From: an uncultured Nitrososphaeraceae archaeon
Lineage (GTDB): Archaea > Thermoproteota > Nitrososphaeria > Nitrososphaerales > Nitrososphaeraceae
Assembly (NCBI GenBank): GCA_963729045.1
Contig: CAVSMN010000012.1
Location: 32,001 to 96,000, forward strand
Reading direction: 5' to 3'
DNA length: 64,000 bases
How positions within the stretch are numbered: position 1 is the first letter of the stretch; every line of letters starts with the position of its first letter. The notes under the pieces are model-generated. The model made no database searches, was not told the DNA's origin, and saw only the letters and a program-made list of their open reading frames with translations. The position numbers and the translations under genes were made by a program. This document shows, one piece after another, positions 32,363 through 48,040 of this stretch.

Positions 32363-32950
32363 CTAACTTAGCTTCTGAGTTTGTCTGACAAATTCATCCT
32401 TAACTGTAGGCCATTCTTCTCTAATAATACTATAGCAAGCAGTATCTCTTATCCTCCCGTTTCGCATTATTTTGTGATTTCGCAAAATTCCATCCTGCTT
32501 TCCTCCTATTCTTTCAATTGCTTTTCTTGATACTTGATTTAAGACATCAGTTCTAATCTCTACTGCTATGCAGTTTAGCTTTTCAAATGCGTATTGTAAC
32601 ATCAAAAGTTTGGCCTCAGTATTTACAGGAGACCTGCGATAAGATTTTGCTATCCAGGTGTGGCCTATCTCTAGCCTATAATTTTGGTGATCAATATTAA
32701 AAAATCTAGTTGTCCCAACTATGATTTTCAATTGCTTGTCTACTATAATGAAAGGTAAACTAGTATTATCATGTTTTATCATATTCTGCAAATAAATGGA
32801 CATTTCTTCAATGCTCGGGAATGATGTGAATGGGTTTTTCCAGATTTCGCCGTCAGCAGCTGCGCTACATAAACCATTCAAATCATCAGATATGGGCGGA
32901 CGAAGTACTACGTGACTGTGCTCCATAGTTATATCATGGACGTCTAGCAT
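32363..32950 (-). CDS. GNAT N-acetyltransferase, RimJ/RimL family
   Basis: LEIGHTW, NTEAKLLMLQYAFE and NQVSRKAIERIG motifs. Confidence 0.9.
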   Translation of the reverse strand: MLDVHDITMEHSHVVLRPPISDDLNGLCSAAADGEIWKNPFTSFPSIEEMSIYLQNMIKHDNTSLPFIIVDKQLKIIVGTTRFFNIDHQNYRLEIGHTWIAKSYRRSPVNTEAKLLMLQYAFEKLNCIAVEIRTDVLNQVSRKAIERIGGKQDGILRNHKIMRNGRIRDTACYSIIREEWPTVKDEFVRQTQKLS

Positions 32951-33765
32951 ATACCTAACAAGATCAATAATTCATCCTTGCTTTATTAAATACAGTGCTA
33001 TTTCATATGATGATTAATTTTGTCGATCTGTAAACTCTATGGGTTTCACAATCAAATTCAACGATCTATTTTTTAAAATGGCATTATAAATAGACTATCA
33101 ACTAGAATATCAGTCTGTGGGTGGTCTGTTAGGCTGAATTTTGTCAGACAATGGATCTCATAGTACTTAAAAAACACCATTATTATAGCATTTTTATGAT
33201 TTTTAATAATATTGGGATAAAAAGATGTAAATTATGCTGATTATTATATCCTTTTTAGAAATATTTATACAATGATAATATTCCAAATATCTAAAAAGAT
33301 ACTTGAGACGTACGAGGTTTGTTTTGTGCCGTTCATCCATATACGCGAAGGGAGGTGAACTAATGTTATATAAGCAGATACTTATCATGTACACATATAT
33401 AAATGGATAATTCATTATGTTTTGGTATGCCATAGTGTCGCTTTTATATATCCGTAGAACAAATTGACTGGTGATTCTATACTTGGAATATATTCATAAC
33501 TACTTAAAAGTAAACTTTTGCTCTGACTAACGTGCTTTGATTATATACACTTGTGCTTGATATACAATATTAATTATCCATATCGGGTCAAAATAACATA
33601 GTATCATTGTTTTCTTTCAATCAGATAGTCTCTAGACAGCAATGATGAATGTCACGCTTTAGTTTTAGGACAGATTCGAGGATGCAATATTCCGCTTCAA
33701 TCTGTTGATCTTAAGAATTTTCGACGAGCCTCGGTAAGAACTGGAATTAATTATTGTGATTGGAG

Positions 33766-33790
33766 AATATTTCATAGAAACAGTATTATA
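33766..33790 (+). repeat. Left att site AATATTTCATAGAAACAGTATTATA
   Basis: Identical to 41546-41570. Confidence 0.88.
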
Positions 33791-34166
33791 AAAAGGATAA
33801 GATGTATATAAACTTCTAAATATCTAGGATACACATTTTTTCTTTAACCTTAGATGAATAGTTCGTGATTATTACCTTTTCAATATGACCGTGAAATTTT
33901 TATACAAATCTCTTCAACTGCTTTTTGAGAAACATCCATCTTTGGGGTTCTTTTATCATAATAAAGTAAGTTAGTGATATGATTTATAATAACAATACCC
34001 TTTTAAATACATAAATTTACATAGAATCGTATTTGTCTATTAAATCATAAAAATTTGACGAGTTAGATATAATTTCCTTAAAACTTTTGTATATTTGTTT
34101 AGCATAATAGTCTAGTAATATCTAGTTGAAAACCCGTTTTATATATAAAATGATATTAGAATTCTA

Positions 34167-34731
34167 ATGATTAAGTTTACTATCATGATGGCCATCCTTT
34201 TGGCATCAGTAAGCCTCTATGGCGCAAACGTGGGATCAATATATGCCCAGAACAACGCCTTGAGTCAAAGTGGAAATTCAGAAGCAGAACAGACAATTGA
34301 ACAGTCACAAGCATCCGAACAAGATTCACAATGTGTATCAGGCGACATTACCGCTCTTATCATGTAACAATCTTGGTTTCCAAGTGCAAAGAAATGGTGA
34401 TGATGACGGCATGGAGGAGAAACCACCGGTACCACCAGGTGATAGATGTCCAGATGACTACGTATGGGACATAACAATACGCGGGACAGCAGATCGAGGT
34501 GGTGTTCCAGTTGGAACTGTAATATGTCTGACCCAAGGACTTGGCAATCATCTAGCAACCGTAGTTGAACCGAACGAACAACCGTACCAAACTAATGTAA
34601 ATACAAACCAGCCAGATGTAGCCAATTGTAATGCTCCAGGACAGCAGCGTGCTGAAGTAACATCAGGAGATCCTCCTACTCCACTAGAGATGGGTGACCC
34701 AGTCTGTGCAACTGTGTCCTCTCCCGCCTGA
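34167..34731 (+). CDS. Secreted CVSG-x5-SCNN repeat protein with Cys-containing C-terminal domain, frameshifted near 34360
   Basis: QSQASEQDSQCVSGDITAL/SCNNLGFQVQ restored by removing one base; joins ORFs 34167 and 34270. Confidence 0.8.
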
Positions 34732-35360
34732 GGATTAATTAGAATAAATTAATCAAAAAATCAATTTTTCTTTTTTTTTAATATTAACCAGCAAGCAATT
34801 TCTATCAGTCATTTCCAATTTTAGTCATGTTGAGTCAAGATAAGTCAAAATTATCTTAGATAATATCTGATAAACTCTAGATTTTCATGGAGATAGGGCG
34901 GCCAAGATGCTGATCGACTCAGAATCTTCCATGTCTTTTCTTTTTCTTTTTGTCTTGTTTTGCAGAATCAAAAACTGATAGGTAGGATCAAGAAGTACCC
35001 TGGGAAGATTTCTAAAACTAATATTGATTTATTATACTTCATCGAGTGAGCATATCGGAAACAGTTCCAGTTCCATTAATATTGTTGCGGCCGCATCTCT
35101 CAAACTCAACTTCAATATTTCTAATTTGTGAATATGTAGATCCTCAAAAGTGATAGTTGAGATGTGCCGTCGCCAAATTATTCATAAAATCGTTCGAATA
35201 TTTTTGATATTCTTAATCCCCAAAATCTTGTCATTAATCTCTTCAAATATAGGTTGAATTTGCAAATGAATCTTGAAAATATTACACGTTATTCATAAAG
35301 TTAAAGTTAAAGTATAACATACTAATGGAACTTAAATAGTAGAAAGTTCTATGGAAATTA

Positions 35361-35607
35361 ATGAATTCACAAACATTCGCAATCGGGATGATTGCAATAA
35401 CGGCTTTTATGCTGGTAGTAAGTAGTTTCGTTTCATCAGAGGCCATGGCTGTTAAGAACGGCGAAGGCGTAACCACAGAATCATGCGTACACAATGGAAA
35501 TGGAGACAGTTCTGATGGAGGCATGCGAAGGCAAAGGTAAGAGCTCACAGACAATAGAAGAGACAGTTTATAAGTGTAAAGGAAAATTCCAGAGCGATCC
35601 CTGTTAA
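35361..35607 (+). CDS. Small secreted four-Cys peptide (not in ORF track), frameshifted near 35520
   Basis: MNSQTFAIGMIAITAFMLVVSSFVSSEAMA-VKNGEGVTTESCVHNGNGDSSD/ACEGKGKSSQTIEETVYKCKGKFQSDPC*; T-tract after the stop. Confidence 0.6.
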
Positions 35608-36202
35608 TATAAATTAGACCCACAATTTTTTTTTATCAAAAATGATAACAATCCTATAAATTGGATAATTGATTGATGTTTTATATTACCAACTAGAATC
35701 CTAAAAACCATTCTAAGGTAAGAAAGACCTGGAGGTAGATAACCGTCCTTTGAGATACTATAATGAGAAGGCAGGTAAATAATTTCTAATAATATAAAAA
35801 GTATTCTATAGTGGATAATATGTATATAAAATTTTCAGGATGAGTCTCCCTCGCTTATCCTTTGCATTTTAGCCGTCGCCAAACTTTTCACAACAGTATT
35901 CAAATGCCAATTTGTTGATTTTTAAATCGGATAGGTGAAAATATTTGATCACTACTCTTTAAGAAGATGATTTCATACATATTATACAGTTGATAGGTTT
36001 CATATTGTTTTTGTGTATAAATGGATGTCATTATCAATAGCATACCTTTCAAATACAGGACTCTAGATGTCTGGGCGGCCGCTTCAAAGAGTCTAGGCAT
36101 CTCAAGTTGTTTTCGGGATACGAATATATTTGATAAAACGGGAGAAATAGGCACAAATATTGATTTCGGTCTATATAGGCTGATTTAAACGAACTGAAGA
36201 AG

Positions 36203-37209
36203 ATGGCAGCATCAAGGAAAAATAATACTATAAAGCATGGAGGGGTTTTAAAGACACAAATCATACCCAAACCGATAGAAGCTTTTCAAACCCCAGAAGA
36301 CATGGTAACAGACCTATTAAAACAGAACTCTAACGGAATTCTTAACAAAAGAATACAAGAGTTTTGTGGAATACATTGCGAAAGAAAATCTATCTAACCA
36401 TTATCCTACCTCTAAAGATATTAAACTCCACTTTAAACTTGGAAAAGACTATACTAAACATGTAATTGCTGAACTTAGGAGGTATGCCTACCTAGATTCA
36501 CATAGCGAAAAAGAAGCGAAGACTCGACCAACTAATTTTATCTAATCTTTTGGTCGATTCATCAAAAGGATCCACAAAAAATATCGTTTCGCCAGAACAA
36601 ATGGCTTTTCAATTGCAAATAATAAAGGATTTCATTGAGGAAGGTAATTACTTACTCCATAACATTAGGCTTGACACAGAACTTAAAGACCGAAAATATT
36701 ATCATAACTTTCAATGGCCGATTAGAAGTATGAAGAATAGAGCAAAAGTCAAAGAAATGAACATCTCGCCCGCCGTTCATGCATTTATGTCGATAAATCC
36801 TACTGGGACTGTAAACATAATACTAGCCTGTTCAAGAAATCCTTTTGATTTGACGACGCCTGAAGGAGTCACCAATTTTCAAGCAGCATGCGGAGAAGTA
36901 CATTCAATATTGAAAGCTGATTTATGTATGAATGAACCATTGATAAGCGCACCGTCCGACTGGGAACTCTCACACTGTGATATTTCAGTTGATATTCCAA
37001 TAAAGTTACTACAAAAGGAGATTAATGGCTCAATAAAAACCGATGGAGCCAGCCAAGTTCACTGGAATTTTGGAGGAGGGATGCAACTAAAGCATTTATC
37101 TTATATATACCAATTTTATGACAAAACTACATTTAACGGTAATGTATTTCGATTAGAAGAAAAGATATCTTTTTCTCCTTCCAATAGATTAAAGCTTAAG
37201 AGAACTTGA
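36203..37209 (+). CDS. wHTH plus putative Rep_trans-like replication initiator, with several frameshifts
   Basis: Shifted-frame wHTH-like segment PTSKDIKLHFKLGKDYTKHVIAELRR; C-terminal SHCDISVD, FYDK and FRLEE motifs. Confidence 0.5.
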
Positions 37210-37374
37210 AAAGAAATTCGTTTCGAAGGGTATCCAGGATGAGATAGAATCGACTCGGAATTAAAGACCTCGAGGAGGAAACGTGAATGTAAAATTCCTG
37301 CGTGGCCAACAGACTCCTGATGTGAAATACACAACAGATGTTAGACCTTTATCCAATAAAGTTAAATGATTCAA

Positions 37375-37715
37375 CGACAGGAAACGCTCGACTTTCATAA
37401 GCGATGGCGCCCCCAACTTTCACATAACCTACAAAAAAGAATTTCAAACTCATACATTGCCAAGAACAAGACATATCCGATACATACTAGTGACAGGCTG
37501 ACCACAACAAAATGGAAAGAATGGAAAAATTAGAGACAGGGAAAAAACCATGCGAGGGTTAAAGAAACCTGACACACCGATACTCAAAGGGTTAAGAATT
37601 TATCATAACTTCATTAGGGGTCATGAAGCCTTAGGAAAACGCCTGCTTAAAACTGCGGTATAAGGATAGAAGGACAGAACAAATGTAAGACTTTAAGTTG
37701 AGAATGCTTCAAACG
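37375..37715 (+). pseudogene. IS6/DDE-type transposase C-terminal remnant
   Basis: FISDGAPNFH, HIRYI, KMER, IRDREKTMRGLKKPDTPILKG, IYHNFIR and GIRIEGQNK fragments with stops and shifts. Confidence 0.75.
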
Positions 37716-37725
37716 AAAATATTCA

Positions 37726-38040
37726 TTAAAATTTGATATGGTTCACTCCGAAAATTAGAACGAAAGCAAGAAGAATACTGATTGAGGCGATAGAAAAAAG
37801 CAAGAATTTCTGACCCCATTTAATTCCATTTGCTTTTTCCAAGTTTTTATCATCAATATCTTTTAAACTTAACAAATACATATCTATCATTCTTTTGGCG
37901 AAATTGTCTTTTGAAGCATTAATGAAGTTATCAACAACATTTTTTACAATAGTAGATTGACCGGGTTGGAAGAAAACACCATGAGTAAGCGGATATTGAT
38001 GATATGCTTGATCGTCTGGGAGTACAAGATATAGAGGAAA
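37726..38040 (-). pseudogene. 5'-truncated membrane protein fragment
   Basis: Open frame of about 104 codons with no start at its 5' end, ending KNLEKANGIKWGQKFLLFSIASISILLAFVLIFG. Confidence 0.45.
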
Positions 38041-38496
38041 ATTAGTTAAATACTACTATAAAGTGATGAATCTTATATTCCTTATAGTATGAGAAAAGAT
38101 TATCTCAAATCATTCCAATGGTAAAGTAGATTCTATCATACAGGGACTTTATGAATCAAAGGACCGAGACCATAAGATGGTTTATAATGGTATTTTATAC
38201 CAATTCAAGGTTTTGGATAAGTATGTATAGGACAAACGGGGGAAAATTTCTTATAGGATCGCCACACGGAACAACAGAAAAGCTGCAAGAACAAACACTC
38301 CTAATAGTTATCATCAAAAAATCAAAACTATGGAAAAATATGAATATGAATAATTGGTACGCATATTCAACCACGATAAAGAGATTATATAAGTATTCTA
38401 TAATATTCAATAAATGTCAATCATTTCTATTAATACGCAATAAAACGACCCATCAATGGTAAAAGCGTAAATATTAGGAGAATGTATCCGGGTTAA

Positions 38497-39737
38497 ATGT
38501 TAGAAAACGTTTTCAATCAAAATTCTTTTAAAGTTAGACTAAAAAATCTATTCCCTAATAGAGAAGGTAATACGCTCTTTCTGACCAAAATGGTACTAGG
38601 AGCAGTCCTATTGTCTGGACTAATAAGCATTTCATCGTACGCTTCTTTCGCAAATGCAACTACGAATGCAACTACAATTGACACGAACAAGATAATCACT
38701 GGTGACACAGAGGAATATAGGATATTTGAAGGTCAGGAACCTACGCTTCAACCATCAGATGTGGGCATTGCAAACCAATCCAATGCCAGGTACCTTTGAG
38801 TGGTGGTACTTTCAGGGAAAATTAGATGATAATTCAACAACCCAAATTACATTACTTGTAAAGCCTTGGGTTGACAACAATGGGCCGCTTCAGCCCTACG
38901 CCACTATAGCCATTACAACTCCTAATGGTACGCATTTAGGGGGAGAGACGAAGGTAGATGCTACCCAATTCAGGGCTGCACACAATACATTAAACGTAAC
39001 GATGGGTGATATCTGGGCTCGTGGTGATTTGAACACCGTTAATTTGCACTTTCCACCGACGGAGAATGGAGTTGGGGCTGACCTAGTTTTTAAAAGTGCC
39101 GCTCCAGCCACAAATTTTGGCAGTGGTATATGGTATTTCGACCAATCGCTGACACGATTCAGCGCTACGAATAATCCAATGCCCTTTGCTAAAGTTCAGG
39201 GTAACTTGACCTACGGCGGCGAGTCTCACCCAGTAAATGGAACAGGGTATATAGACAAGCAGTGGGGGACAGTCAACTGGAACCAGGACTATGACGGCTG
39301 GTACTGGTCAACTGGTCATTATGGAAACTACACTATAGACCTGTTTGAACTGACCACTTCAGCGCCATTTAACCATCAGAAAACCGTGGATGCCTATTTG
39401 GCCAAAGGAAATGGGCCAAGTGAGGTCTTAGTCGAAACTATGCAGGGCGTTACTGCACACACATCAGGGAAAAACTTTACTTCTCCTTCAGGGGTACATA
39501 CATACCCAGAAGTACTAACATTACAATGGAAGAACGGCTCAAATTCAGCAACTCTGACTCTTACTAATCCTACAATCATTGCACACCCACCCACCATTGT
39601 TAATACTAATGCAACCATATACGGAACCCCTGAATATATGCGGATAGCAGGGTAAAGGTACACTTAATGTGCAGTGGAATGGGACCAACGAAACAGCAAG
39701 CGCCCCTGCAATCTGGGAGGTCAGTTATCTGCACTAA
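38497..39737 (+). CDS. Secreted AttH/CrtC (lipocalin-like) family protein, two frameshifts (about 38763 and 39652)
   Basis: FEWWYF and GTGYIDKQWG...WYW motifs; tail GKGTLNVQWNG...IWEVSYLH in the shifted frame. Confidence 0.75.
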
Positions 39738-40219
39738 GAACCTATCCTATCCTATTCCAAAATTATCTTTCTATAGATTTTATACAACAAGCGAAGAGAT
39801 CTGTACCTACCCAGGATAGTATGACTGGAGTGTTCTCAATCGTTCAAGCCTGTTGATATGCTTTCAAGCAATAACGGTATTTGCTCCGATAAAATTTATG
39901 GATGACCGAATTACTGAACCACATTTAACTAAATATGGTCTAGTTACAAATTTGCTACTCGACTCGGAAGATGTGTAACAACCAACCACAAAATAATGTA
40001 ATGAGTTGTTAGAAAGATAGCTACTATACTCATATTTCACTATAGTTCCTAGTGTCGAATATGATAGGATTGTGAAATGCGCCAACTAAGGTTTATATCC
40101 CATAGCATTTGCTCAAATAATAATTAAAAATAGATCTCTACGTCACCTTTTAAGAGGCCGTGATGGTATTTATCATTATGAAATAGTATTTGATCCTAGT
40201 AGAATTTCCACCTAATTGG

Positions 40220-41499
40220 CTATTCATCCATACCCCAAAGCATTCTGAAAGTTTTCTGCTGCTCAGGTTCAAGTAACTTTAAGAATTTCTCTCTATCATG
40301 TTGTGCTCGTTCAAATTTTGCATCAAGATTCTCGAGTCTATTAGCTAGTCTCTCAAACATGGTGTTATATCGTGAAAGTTTACTAGTCAAGCGAAATTCG
40401 TTACTAATAGTTAGATTGTCAATGGCCTTCAAATACTCTTGTAGAATCTCTGCCATCTGAAGGCTTGTAATATGCTGAGTCTAATCCTACACTATGACCG
40501 ACTAACATTTCCCTAATTGTTTTATCGATTTTTGACCTTTGCATGTTTGTGATAGCAAAGATTCTAAAGGAATGACATGGATGTAACTCATTCTTATGGG
40601 AGGCTCTGTAAACAGAAGAATTTTCAGTAAGAATCCATTCCTTTCTTAGATTCAATTTCTTGAGCTTTTTTACAATGTAAACGCACGGAGCCCCACTGCT
40701 GACATAGGCTCCTTGTGTAACTCACTATTTGAAGGCAATATTGGATTCATCTATATCAAATAATTTTGTAAAGAGATAAGTACTCATCAGGTCCCCAGTT
40801 TCCTGTATTCAAATCCTGAACTAAGGATTTATCAACTTTTTTTCTATAAGAGAGATAATTGTCAATGGCTTTAGCACATTCAGGGGTACAAAATGTAAAG
40901 TAACTATCTTTTCTTGATGTCGCATAGACTTGAATTCTATACACATACTTTCCATCCTCCAAATCATATCTCTGTGAGGTGCCTCAGTTTTATCGAAGGA
41001 AGCGCCCCCACTCTCATCCCTGTTGAAGCCATCAACAACACAATTGCTTTTCCTCTCTCATCACACAACGAAGCAAAGATGAAATTTCATCATGAGTATA
41101 AGATTGATATTCATACTTGTTCTCCTGCTCTCCAAGGAAATTTGAAAGCTTTTTTCTATTGAAATTATGTCATTGATGTGAAAAAAAGTGATACAGGGCG
41201 GCCAAATGGACAGAAACTGTGGAATAGGATGACCCCGCATTTTTCATTTCAATTAATTGTTGGGTTATCTCCGATTCAATGACCTTGGGATTCTTTTCCA
41301 GAATTTCGTCCAGTGATTCTAGTGACTTATTAATGGGAAGCCGCAGATATTTCTGTAAACAGCCTTCATACTTTATCTGGGTATGTTTGGACCTTAGGGC
41401 GGAAATGAAGAGAGAATATGCTGGATGAGTTTTATAATTGGCTAAAAGCGGATTGATTGAGGCTGTCGAAACTGTTGAATTATCTAAACTTGTTGTCAA
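40220..41499 (-). CDS. Tyrosine recombinase/integrase, fragmented by multiple indels
   Basis: ASTGMRVGALP (R), HSFR (HxxR) and MLVGHSVGLDSAYY (H...Y) across ORFs 41170, 40756, 40419 and 40220. Confidence 0.9.
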
Positions 41500-41545
41500 A
41501 GTCTGTTCTCCTTTTGAAAAGACGAGTCAGTTATTATATAGACGA

Positions 41546-41570
41546 AATATTTCATAGAAACAGTATTATA
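41546..41570 (+). repeat. Right att site AATATTTCATAGAAACAGTATTATA
   Basis: Identical to 33766-33790; 47 nt from the integrase start. Confidence 0.88.
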
Positions 41571-41609
41571 TTTATTACTTTACAATCTACGTAATTAGGA
41601 TAGAGAAGA

Positions 41610-42036
41610 GTGACGATAGAGCTATCAGTGGGTGCAATAATAAGATATCAATCTATTGAATTCAATAGAGAATCATTCTGAATTTCTCCTTTTGAGAAAT
41701 AAACGTGGATTTTGGGGATTTCCCCAAGGCCATAAAGAAAGAGGGGAAAATGAAATTCAGACATTGCAGAGAGAGGTGCAGGAAGAAACTGGAATAGTTG
41801 ATCTAGATATACACCAATACATAGGCAAGATTCAATACAAATACTTTAGAGCTGATGGAATTCGATCAGAGAAGGAAGTGAAATTTTATTTTGCAACTAC
41901 TCCAGTTAGAGAAGTCACTATATCAAATGAGCACGAAGGATTCAAATGGACAACTTATCAAGATGCGCTTTCGCTTCTCGACCACCGTCAACTGAAATCA
42001 ATAATCCTAAAAGGTAGAAGAAGAGGCCTTTATTAA
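41610..42036 (+). CDS. NUDIX hydrolase (Ap4A hydrolase-like), frameshifted near 41650
   Basis: Nudix box GHKERGENEIQTLQREVQEETG; N-terminal MTIELSVGAII from GTG 41610 in another frame. Confidence 0.88.
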
Positions 42037-42139
42037 TACACATATTTCGAAAGTTACTGTCCTACTCCGCATACTCTAAATGCTATGAAAATAATTTTAT
42101 ACCTACGTTTTATTAATAGAAGCGGATATAGATTAAAAA

Positions 42140-43714
42140 ATGGTTGCTGGTAAAAGAATTGTGCTAACTGCCGATCGTAGTTTGATGACCAACTATAGAG
42201 GTAATTTTCTTTATGGGTTCATAGCATGTGGCCCATATGAACTTGTTCCTGAATTTGTATTTGATAAACTTTTTTGTCCAAGTGTTGAAACTGATAAGAA
42301 TACTGGAGAAATAAAAGTTGCCCAATGTGGTCTGCGTCGTATTGAAAGTGCATTGATTCGAGAGTACGATAAAAGCGAAGTATTTCTAGCTCATCCAGAA
42401 ATGTTGGAAAAATGTATTGGACCACAAACCAAGGTTGTAGGAATAAATGTCATGGATCCGTTGGGAATGGCTCCGGTAACAACCACCATGTCACCTGAAA
42501 AATTATCTTATGTGGCAATGAAATTTAAAAAAATGTGTGCTTCTATCATTCAATTAAAAAAGAAATATGATTTTAAAGTCGTCGTTGGGGGTAATGGCTC
42601 TTGGGAATTAGCCAAACCTGAAAGGATGAAGATTCACGGAATTGATACCGTGGTGATAGGTGAAGCAGATGAGTTAGCATTGGATTTGTTTCATGATCTA
42701 GAAGCTGGGGATGCACCAGAACTTCTTCATACGTTTGTACGCAATATAGAGAATATTCCTGTTATACGTGGTCCAACAATCAACTCATTAATTGAAGCCA
42801 TGAGAGGTTGCGGACGGGGTTGTGATTTTTGTGATGTGAATAAGAGATCTAAGAAAGATATTCCTTTAGATAGATTACAGGAAGAAGCTAAAATAAATAT
42901 AAAATATGGCTTTGATTCCATCTGGCTACAGTCAGATGAAATGTTACTTTATGGCTGTGATAATAAAGACTTTATACCAAATCAGGAAGCAATTTTAGAC
43001 GTTTGGAAGGGGCTAAAGTCGGTAGGAGCTAACTTCATAGGTACTACTCACATGACTTTGTCAGCTGTTGCTTCATCTCCTGATTTGATAAAAAATATTT
43101 CTCAGGTAAATGATATGGAAAACAATGGTCGCTGGCTTGCGACTAACTTAGGAGTTGAAACTGTCGCCCCGCGGATGGTAAAAAAACACCTTGGGGTAAA
43201 AACGAGGCCTTTCCAACCAGAGGAATGGGGATCAGTTGTAAGAGAGGGATGCAAAATACTAAATCAAAATCATTGGTTTCCAGCATTAACATTGATAATT
43301 GGATGGCCTGATGAAACACCTGATGAGACCCAATATACTATTGATTTGATCCAGGATTTCAGACAAATGAATATGAGGGGATTAGTCGCTCCATTATTAT
43401 ATCAGGATTTCTCTGAGAAAAATTCAATGCATTTTGGAAATTTGAATGAATCACAATTTGCGCTCTTTTGGACATGTTGGCAACATAATCTTAGGGTAAT
43501 AAGTGACATTATACCTATAATTATTCGTAACAAATCTTACGGGCCTGCGATGAAGGTATTTATGGCAATGTTAATAAAATTTGGAACCTGGGCCATAATG
43601 AGATATTTACGTGGCCTGTCCAAAGGCTTGTTTGAAGGTAAACCTGCTGAAGATATTGTTGCAAAGTATGTGCGACCGCGTTCTGTGACCGCACCAATGC
43701 CTCCAAAATTATAA
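42140..43714 (+). CDS. B12-binding-domain radical SAM protein
   Basis: RGCGRGCDFC (CxxxCxxC); VVVGG and VIGEAD motifs. Confidence 0.9.
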   Translation: MVAGKRIVLTADRSLMTNYRGNFLYGFIACGPYELVPEFVFDKLFCPSVETDKNTGEIKVAQCGLRRIESALIREYDKSEVFLAHPEMLEKCIGPQTKVVGINVMDPLGMAPVTTTMSPEKLSYVAMKFKKMCASIIQLKKKYDFKVVVGGNGSWELAKPERMKIHGIDTVVIGEADELALDLFHDLEAGDAPELLHTFVRNIENIPVIRGPTINSLIEAMRGCGRGCDFCDVNKRSKKDIPLDRLQEEAKINIKYGFDSIWLQSDEMLLYGCDNKDFIPNQEAILDVWKGLKSVGANFIGTTHMTLSAVASSPDLIKNISQVNDMENNGRWLATNLGVETVAPRMVKKHLGVKTRPFQPEEWGSVVREGCKILNQNHWFPALTLIIGWPDETPDETQYTIDLIQDFRQMNMRGLVAPLLYQDFSEKNSMHFGNLNESQFALFWTCWQHNLRVISDIIPIIIRNKSYGPAMKVFMAMLIKFGTWAIMRYLRGLSKGLFEGKPAEDIVAKYVRPRSVTAPMPPKL

Positions 43715-47955: not shown

Positions 47956-48040
47956 TGCGGGAGATGGGATTTGAACCCACGAACCCCTAAGGGATAAGGC
48001 CCTCAACCTTACGCCTTTGGCCAAGCTGGGCGACTCCCGC
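47956..48040 (-). tRNA. tRNA-Leu (anticodon GAG), intronless
   Basis: GCGGGAG acceptor stem, TAAGG-TTGAGGG-CCTTA anticodon arm, long variable arm, GGTTCAAATCC T-loop. Confidence 0.96.

Follow-up and report, generated by a model that had tools for sequence, protein, structure and literature searches.

We examined a 64,000-nucleotide stretch (hereafter the window) of contig CAVSMN010000012.1 from an uncultured Nitrososphaeraceae archaeon, and found that a 7.8-kb interval within it, at positions 33766 to 41570, is most probably (a probability of about 0.88) a decayed relic of a small plasmid-like integrative element, of the type designated cryptic integrated element (CIE). The repeats at its borders are unique, several related genomes carry the corresponding empty site, and others carry occupied sites with the same core sequence. 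Taken together, these observations indicate an element integrated by a tyrosine recombinase at a conserved intergenic attachment (att) site. The window copy has decayed to a relic and is unable to move by itself. The genome that harbours the window, designated G000, is that of a soil ammonia oxidiser; the assembly consists of 2,847,185 bases in 22 contigs and is 87% complete.

The borders of the interval are the following.

33766..33790, + strand: attL, 25-bp direct repeat; conserved 18-bp core at 33773-33790 as judged from junction alignment
41546..41570, + strand: attR, 25-bp direct repeat; conserved 18-bp core at 41553-41570

An exact 25-mer, AATATTTCATAGAAACAGTATTATA, is present at both positions. 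When up to three mismatches were allowed, these two sites were still the only ones in the window, and no such result was obtained with 100 shuffles (0/100). The 25-mer was found at the same two places in the whole of G000, and at no others. A preliminary description of this DNA had reported identical 25-bp repeats at these positions, and they proved to be exact and unique in their own genome; with two copies only, the 25-mer is not a promoter motif occurring genome-wide. Alignment of the junctions indicated that the core common to relatives is 18 bp, CATAGAAACAGTATTATA, as opposed to the 25-bp repeat in G000. TATTATAT is a stretch within this core. The core is situated 39 nt upstream of the start codon of a NUDIX hydrolase gene, in the intergenic region between this gene and a divergently oriented GNAT acetyltransferase gene. 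The right repeat ends in TATTATA at 41570, and 39 nt separate it from the NUDIX GTG at 41610, in agreement with the distance of about 40 nt described previously. The imperfect dyad symmetry that had been pointed out is also present, with its halves at 41544-41549 (AAATAT) and 41567-41572 (ATATTT); the AAATAT half is element-derived sequence and is missing from the empty sites of relatives. With direct repeats at both borders and an integrase gene beside one of them, the interval has the structure of an att-flanked element.

Concerning tRNA genes, ARAGORN identified none at either end of the element, as the preliminary description had stated; the sole tRNA gene in the window (47956-48040) is more than 6 kb from either end. 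An Rfam search over 32900-42200 gave only matches at chance level, none of them at the att sites. We found no terminal inverted repeats adjoining the cores.

The two flanks were used to search relatives (41 genomes per flank including G000 itself, with 24 other genomes of the same genus). Five congeners (G022, G013, G014, G002 and G008) harbour an empty site, with one core and, after it, the NUDIX leader seen in the window. In G022, G013 and G014, the GNAT and NUDIX genes are located 0.5-0.6 kb apart on one contig. In G002 and G008 the host-type sequence is found at contig ends; the G002 contig stops just past the core, and in G008 the GNAT gene is on a separate contig. The single repeat copy upstream of NUDIX that would be expected at an unoccupied site is hence represented in these genomes by the 18-bp core. 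Occupied sites, with two cores on the same strand, are present in G000 (7.8 kb apart), G020 (8.7 kb) and G004 (26.3 kb). The element DNA of G020 and G004 is common with that of the window only at the integrase end and, in the case of G020, also along the left arm and a gene encoding a Rep-like protein described below. The region is accordingly not a conserved, syntenic segment of the host chromosome, as G020 and G004 carry different elements between their cores.

A 15-nt core pattern was detected in 25 of 34 genomes of the genus, mostly in one copy each. An integrase of the same clade adjoins the core and NUDIX in G000, G004, G020, G048, G042, G019, G046, G016 and G005, and also, by coordinates, in G023, which brings the number of genomes with such an integrase beside the core to 10 out of 34. 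For the G048 element, a search over 8.5 kb did not reveal an attL. Integrase relatives with about 50% identity are located elsewhere, without this core. The records containing related integrases are Nitrososphaeraceae or Candidatus Nitrosocosmicus metagenome-assembled genomes. The att site is a hotspot, used across the genus by elements with related integrases and differing cargo.

Transposition also generates flanking direct repeats, and a remnant of an insertion sequence (IS) is present inside the interval. We therefore considered whether the repeats might be the target-site duplication of a transposon, or might be fortuitous or regulatory, having nothing to do with the integrase. Target-site duplications of IS elements are far shorter than 18-25 bp. 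In addition, the same core bounds three different elements, each with an integrase adjoining the NUDIX-side copy, the cores have no inverted repeats next to them, the IS fragment is internal and truncated, and the 25-mer is confined to two places in the genome. We rejected this explanation on the basis of the core shared across independent elements and of the empty sites, and regard its likelihood as negligible.

Three further observations concern these sites. The G002 bin holds both forms on C169/C74 (L019, L008), one contig end being of the empty type (GNAT-core) and the other presenting core and NUDIX after an element-type arm, TTATTATATTTAGGATA; this suggests either that both alleles exist in the population or that the bin is a mixture. 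In the complete genome of G015, the 15-nt core occurs at C1:1798015-1798029 and 2094232-2094246, on the same strand and 296 kb apart. One of the two is the NUDIX copy, and the additional one adjoins a distant integrase (27% identity, 1796242-1797381), in a geometry unlike that of the window. As judged from translations of open reading frames (ORFs), the 26.3-kb element of G004 (L028+L029, C25 at approximately 494.9-521.2 kb) encodes two P-loop/repeat proteins, one of 1448 aa and one fragmented, and also contains a large uncharacterised ORF (561 aa).

The gene adjoining attR was then read in three frames and aligned to its G020 counterpart.

40220..41499, - strand: tyrosine integrase pseudogene (three-frame reading; DNA alignment to G020)

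The G020 orthologue is an intact ORF of 424 aa in the integrated state, and its DNA is 89% identical to the window copy. Its product matches PF00589 (Phage_integrase) with 27.8 bits (cut-off 27.1, E 2.6e-6) and a PHROG integrase with E 4.7e-10. The separate integrase ORF fragments of G000 gave no Pfam match on their own, and a PDB sequence search with the integrase resulted in only marginal matches (XerA, E 0.39). In nine intact integrases of the genus, chosen from 11 loci by a length of at least 330 aa and the presence of an HxxR string, the residues R163, K197, H308, R311, H334 and Y342, which make up the catalytic R-K-H-x-x-R-H/W-Y set of tyrosine recombinases, are invariant. Compared with G020, the window integrase displays eight insertions or deletions (indels) in 1.27 kb, mostly outside homopolymer runs and including a 2-base insertion, with an in-frame stop between the first two. 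The motifs STGMR, HSFR and GH..AYY are still encoded in the G000 integrase DNA, in different frames. The G004 copy is also broken, at positions other than those in G000, which indicates that decay has been independent and recurrent. Because the integrase carries eight indels, the Rep-like gene is spread over three frames and the IS is a fragment, we regard the window copy as a relic. The gene content given in the preliminary description (integrase, Rep-like gene, IS remnant and three secreted-protein genes, the latter as signal-peptide-like ORFs) was all found, with the correction that the integrase and the Rep-like gene are pseudogenes.

It could be argued that the element is still functional and able to excise, with the frameshifts in the integrase and Rep-like genes being assembly errors. 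The incomplete state of the genome, in 22 contigs, would be in line with this, and neither the extra base at 41671 nor that at 34356 is present in contigs of other runs, so that there are single-base differences between the assembly and the environmental sequence. On the other hand, indels as dense as those in the integrase, and mostly away from homopolymers, are not seen in the neighbouring GNAT and radical-SAM ORFs; since these flanking ORFs (195 aa and 524 aa, respectively) are whole, we consider the integrase lesions to reflect real decay rather than assembly errors. The recurrent breakage in G004 and the truncation of the IS fragment inside the element argue in the same direction, as does, weakly and from contigs only, the failure to observe a joint that skips the element. 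A functional element is very unlikely in our judgement.

Several points nevertheless weigh against the interpretation of the interval as a decayed element. With an assembly that is 87% complete, some of the indels may be assembly errors or strain differences. Two single-base frameshifts, those at 41671 and 34356, are contradicted by contigs from other runs; in the case of 34356, contigs of two runs are without one base, which would join two secreted-protein ORFs. Neither an excised circle nor an empty allele of this genome was seen in the contigs of four runs, each of which contains at most 0.31 of the sampled words, making this weak evidence. The 7 nt to the left of the 18-bp core are also identical in the two G000 repeats, a feature peculiar to G000 that a simple model of recombination at the core leaves unexplained. 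As for the contigs of the runs in general, no joint skipping the element, no attP junction and no transcription start were found among them, which says nothing on their absence.

Integration of the ancestral element would have proceeded as follows. A circular element with a tyrosine recombinase would have recombined its attP with the chromosomal attB at the 18-bp core CATAGAAACAGTATTATA, and the recombination would have duplicated the core as attL and attR. As attR keeps the core and the native leader, the presumed part of the NUDIX promoter resembling a B recognition element (BRE) and TATA box would have been rebuilt. In the window copy, the integrase and Rep-like genes are now pseudogenes, and the interval has taken up an IS fragment and host-like secreted-protein genes.

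The promoter part of this scheme concerns the sequences on both sides of attR.

41531..41543, - strand: TATA-like motif TTATTATATAGAC in the right arm of the element, about 38 nt upstream of the integrase start; conserved in other occupied attR arms
41571..41609, + strand: conserved NUDIX leader, promoter-proximal region
41610..42036, + strand: host NUDIX hydrolase gene (Pfam NUDIX, E 4.4e-17), GTG start

We compared 17 loci of the genus with the window. The core with the next 6 nt and the last 19 nt or so before the GTG are conserved in all 17 loci, in contrast to what precedes the core: identity over the 40 nt ahead of it is 50-85%, with the highest values at occupied sites. For the core and spacer, identity is 80-98%, equal to or above that of the NUDIX coding sequence (79-95%). 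In the most distant group, conservation is limited to two blocks, CATAGAAACARTATTATATTTATT and the 19 nt or so that end at the GTG. The attR of the window retains the full core and everything downstream. Archaeal promoters are built around a BRE/TATA block, and the pattern of conservation would fit such a block followed by a variable spacer and a start region. As judged from sequence conservation, the core is a candidate for part of the NUDIX promoter. The earlier proposal that the element inserted into the NUDIX promoter region and preserved it is supported by this conservation, together with the core and leader kept in attR. Concerning the NUDIX gene itself, a 1-base insertion (an extra A) at 41671 shifts the frame after codon 20. 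Among five aligned genomes it is found in G000 only, and one contig of a soil run (X1) is without it. The insertion is either a strain-specific pseudogene mutation or an assembly error.

On the element side, the att core starts 53 nt beyond the start codon of the integrase. At occupied sites, TTATTATATRTAG is common to the attR arms; it is located about 10 nt from the core and 38 nt upstream of the integrase start, and a GGAG follows it. Judging from its position and conservation, the TATA-like motif of the right arm is probably the integrase's own promoter. We had also considered that the integrase promoter might be rebuilt only on circularisation, as in SNJ2, and dropped this model due to the conserved TATA-like motif between the integrase start and the core.

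The left part of the element contains a second site resembling attL.

33791..35791, + strand: segment A, probably what remains of a second element in tandem, without integrase (left arm, small ORFs, repeat fragment)
33791-33815, + strand: left arm of segment A
34167-34731, + strand: secreted-protein gene of segment A, broken near 34356
34888-35218: repeat-family fragment in segment A
35361-35540, + strand: small signal-peptide ORF in segment A
35792..35833, + strand: internal degenerate att-like site with conserved left arm, 81% identical to attL and arm at 33774-33815

To the right of 35792 there is a module like that of G020 (arm, Rep-like gene, integrase); to the left there are 2 kb with only small secreted-protein ORFs. 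The internal site suggests a tandem of two elements or their remnants, A (33791-35791) and B (35792-41545). The same sequences might be explained by a single element, the stretch at 35792 being an internal duplication of the left end or a repeated arm-type site for integrase binding or promoter function. The matching of only 14 of the 18 core positions at the internal site would be consistent with this, and the conserved part includes a TATA-like sequence, GATGTATATAAA, that could be a reused promoter. Segment A, moreover, has no integrase remnant, no Rep-like gene and no recognisable right arm, which counts against a tandem history and makes it only one reading. On the contrary, the internal site is nearer to the attL and arm of G020 (88.6% identity over 44 nt) than the true attL of G000 is (80.6% over 67 nt), it is positioned exactly where a G020-like module would begin, and archaeal integrase elements arrayed in tandem at a single att site are on record in the portion of the Thaumarchaeota survey consulted (PMC6563490). 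Taking these into account, we consider a single element unlikely, and favour the tandem arrangement.

The second gene of the G020-like module encodes the Rep-like protein.

36167..37221, + strand: Rep-like pseudogene, winged-helix and TATA-binding protein (TBP) fold, in three reading frames (ORFs 36203-36397, 36366-36545 and 36550-37209)

In a tblastx comparison of the window with the intact Rep-like gene of G020 (361 aa), the matches fell in frames 2, 0 and 1, and a profile of the family matched the window gene with an internal TGA. The G020 protein has 95 representative cluster relatives at E 0.001 or better. Pfam revealed weak winged-helix and DnaD_N similarity below the cut-off, and PHROGs weak matches to replication initiators over the same winged-helix stretch; a PDB sequence search with the profile returned winged-helix proteins only. 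We modelled the structure with AlphaFold 2 from 40 sequences (39 of the 95 hits, mostly chosen for full length), and the second domain alone from 48. The mean confidence (predicted local distance difference test) was 85.8 for the full model and 90.5 for the domain-only model. In the predicted structure, the N-terminal part is a MarR/Fur-like winged helix (Z 8-9), and the C-terminal part follows the TBP topology, S1-H1-S2-5-H2 x2. In an exhaustive structure search, the six best matches over the whole domain were five TBPs (Z 6.3-7.1) and RepDE (4cwc, Z 6.2), the latter with 146 residues aligned, a root mean square deviation of 4.4 and 16% identity, the highest of the six. Foldseek gave TBPs at E of about 1e-4 and Rep_trans proteins (4cij/4cwe) at 1e-3 to 4e-3, with probabilities of 0.89-1.0, and matches in a viral structure library include an Inoviridae Rep_trans protein and a phycodnavirus TBP. 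H153, W256, Y307, R318 and E320 are invariant in the family (Y307 and E320 in 37 of 37 sequences), K309 is present in 36 of 37 and D262/D266 in 34 of 40, and the conserved residues are situated on predicted sheet strands. By profile, the family was detected in 20 of the 34 genus genomes. When the 28 strongest hits (E 1e-60 or better) were compared by hand, 13 were within 4 kb of an integrase hit. The element family has as its core genes an integrase and this winged-helix/TBP-fold protein.

We regard a role of the protein as a replication initiator, possibly of the rolling-circle type resembling Rep_trans, as somewhat better than an even chance on the strength of the predicted model. The following points count against it. 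The fold matches are moderate (Z about 7, template modelling scores of 0.3-0.46) and could reflect only a common arrangement. PF25227 and PF02486 were matched by none of the 40 family members scanned, among which seven Pfam families were matched at E 0.01 or better. PF25227 (DUF7845) was not detected in any of the 34 genus genomes, with a Haloferax control responding. The domain order, as discussed below, is the reverse of that in Rep-Arvir.

The protein might instead be a DNA-binding regulator or a partition-type protein, and neither an initiator nor a nuclease. Its best fold matches are TBPs, which only bind DNA, it has no sequence match to Rep_trans or DUF7845, and the authors of the Thaumarchaeota survey caution, in the part drawn on here, that the winged-helix proteins found in elements of this kind may act as regulators (PMC6563490). 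On the other hand, the invariant residues of the sheet are polar or catalytic in type (H153, Y307, K309, R318, E320, D262/D266) and resemble an active site, and RepDE stands among the six best whole-domain matches with the highest identity. The Foldseek list also matches that published for RepSNJ2, including the Inoviridae Rep entry, as far as the section of that paper considered here goes (PMC13107129), and we saw no other replication gene in the 8.7-kb element of G020. A regulator is a real possibility, although we place it below even odds; an initiator remains our preferred assignment. In addition to the pair in the element, G000 contains a second decayed pair (C14:115101-119170), consisting of an integrase fragment and a Rep-like gene with nine stops.

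The remaining features of the interval and its left flank are the following.

37391..37745, + strand: 3' end of a DDE transposase gene of IS6/IS240 type, a remnant of about 110 codons interrupted by stops (six-frame reading)
38497..39655, + strand: cargo, a signal-peptide ORF (38497-38799) overlapping a 317-aa CrtC/AsqO-like lipocalin ORF (38702-39655)
39751..39820, strand not assigned: fragment of about 66 bp of a multi-copy repeat, which in relatives is often 50-130 bases from contig ends and is possibly an IS end
32363..32950, - strand: host GNAT acetyltransferase gene, left host neighbour (Pfam Acetyltransf_3, E 1.5e-17)
33180..33608, strand not assigned: insertion of a repeat family into host sequence to the left of the element, with copies of 76-82% identity on G000 C11, C19 and C12

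The IS sequence matches the C-terminus of ORFs of approximately 360-390 aa that are multi-copy in other genomes of the genus, and the fragment is the single match in G000. A full copy (L051:604-1695, 363 aa) matches PF13610 (DDE_Tnp_IS240) with E 3.4e-15. No Pfam match was obtained with the short ORFs in 37366-38462 or with the 42-aa IS fragment. Judged from its reading frames, the window sequence is a remnant rather than an IS, with only a 3' fragment containing stops. The CrtC/AsqO-like ORF matches Pfam CrtC (E 9.9e-9) and AsqO_C (E 4.8e-6), and its G+C content is raised (0.41-0.46). The gene is 92% identical to one on G004:C17, away from the NUDIX site, and that copy is broken; the window gene may be frameshifted. 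In two soil/rhizosphere runs, the CrtC/AsqO-like gene (38706-39656) has a summed contig depth of 72-150, and it is present in an RNA run; the high depth indicates that close relatives are common in soils, beyond the element. Signal-peptide-like N-termini were recognised by eye in the translations of three ORFs (starts at 34167, 35361 and 38497). The share of sequence covered by ORFs of 120 aa or more is 27% in the element and 83% in the 22 kb to its right. In the part of the window to the left (1-33765), the value is 53%, and further islands or decayed genes may be present there. The repeat of about 430 bp at 33180-33608, between GNAT and the att site, is not present in the sites of relatives and may be an insertion resembling a miniature inverted-repeat transposable element.

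With regard to known systems, 74 integrated elements are listed in a survey of Thaumarchaeota (Krupovic et al. 2019). According to the portion of that survey consulted, 68 sites were mapped (39 in tRNA genes, 15 intergenic and 14 at gene 3' ends) with a median att length of 17 bp, and most elements are CIEs, some with only an integrase and a winged-helix protein (PMC6563490). The window element is similar to these CIEs, for example the 2.6-kb NitUzo-E2 (integrase and winged-helix protein), in being small, carrying an integrase and having short att repeats; a winged-helix protein as the sole candidate replication gene and the tandem reuse of sites are known from the same passages (PMC6563490). 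The differences are that the text and supplementary tables of the survey do not contain the NUDIX att site (no occurrence of 'NUDIX'), that the only Nitrosocosmicus genome included there has two elements, both in tRNA genes, and that the window copy is a pseudogenised relic. Integrative elements and prophages that target tRNA genes share the recombination of attP with attB, the duplicated core and the restored target, but the target in the window is an intergenic, promoter-proximal sequence and not a tRNA gene. The view of a small integrative plasmid-like element at the NUDIX promoter region, put forward in the preliminary description, is upheld in this respect, with the reservations that the copy is dead and composite and that the shared core measures 18 and not 25 bp.

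The SSV-type ('suicidal') integrases are likewise tyrosine recombinases of archaeal mobile elements. In these, going by the part of the source considered, integration splits the integrase gene, as the att is contained in its ORF (PMC7253208). The window core, in contrast, is 53 nt away from the integrase start, and the G020 gene is whole. With its core outside the integrase ORF and the G020 gene intact, the element behaves like the non-splitting type. That class is known as 'pNOB8-type'.

The closest likeness to the Rep-like protein is provided by Rep-Arvir (DUF7845; SNJ2; Wang et al. 2026) and Rep_trans (RepD/RepDE; 4cwc, 4cij). In the sections of the Rep-Arvir paper used here, these are described as having a TBP-like fold joined to a MarR-like winged helix, an association with integrase-bearing temperate elements, and conserved Tyr and acidic residues on the sheet (PMC13107129). 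The Foldseek profile of our protein is nearly identical to that given there for RepSNJ2, with the same Inoviridae Rep entry and the phycodnavirus TBP (PMC13107129). In contrast to Rep-Arvir, the winged helix comes first in the Rep-like protein, and its motif is Y-x-K instead of YxxK or KHYYM. Candidate counterparts of Y307, E320 and D262/D266 in RepDE are Y191, E214, D142 and D46. The terms Thaumarchaeota and Nitrososphaer- do not occur in the text of the Rep-Arvir paper (PMC13107129), and neither this site nor this protein family turned up for ammonia oxidisers in a full-text literature search on Nitrosocosmicus integrases and mobile elements and on Rep-Arvir/DUF7845. We tentatively propose, at odds that we put below even, that the winged-helix/TBP-fold protein represents a third, unrecognised branch of the Rep_trans/Rep-Arvir superfamily, with permuted domain order and specific to small integrative plasmids of soil ammonia-oxidising Nitrososphaeraceae; these would carry specialised integrases, one lineage of which would use the BRE/TATA part of the NUDIX promoter, a conserved housekeeping promoter, as attB instead of a tRNA gene.

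The element is one more decayed member of a class already catalogued in Thaumarchaeota, and is ordinary in itself; the Rep-like protein is the part that may be new. The hotspot, with an integrase beside the core in 10 of 34 genomes and at least three different cargos, provides a natural series of empty, occupied and decayed states, useful for examining how archaeal integrases choose targets other than tRNA genes and how insertion affects a neighbouring promoter. Intact relatives, in G020 and G048, carry a compact pair of integrase and Rep-like genes. If the Rep-like protein is a TBP-fold rolling-circle initiator, a mechanism recently recognised in archaea would extend to the ammonia oxidisers, and the pair could seed the plasmid vectors that are missing for these archaea, which are hard to manipulate.

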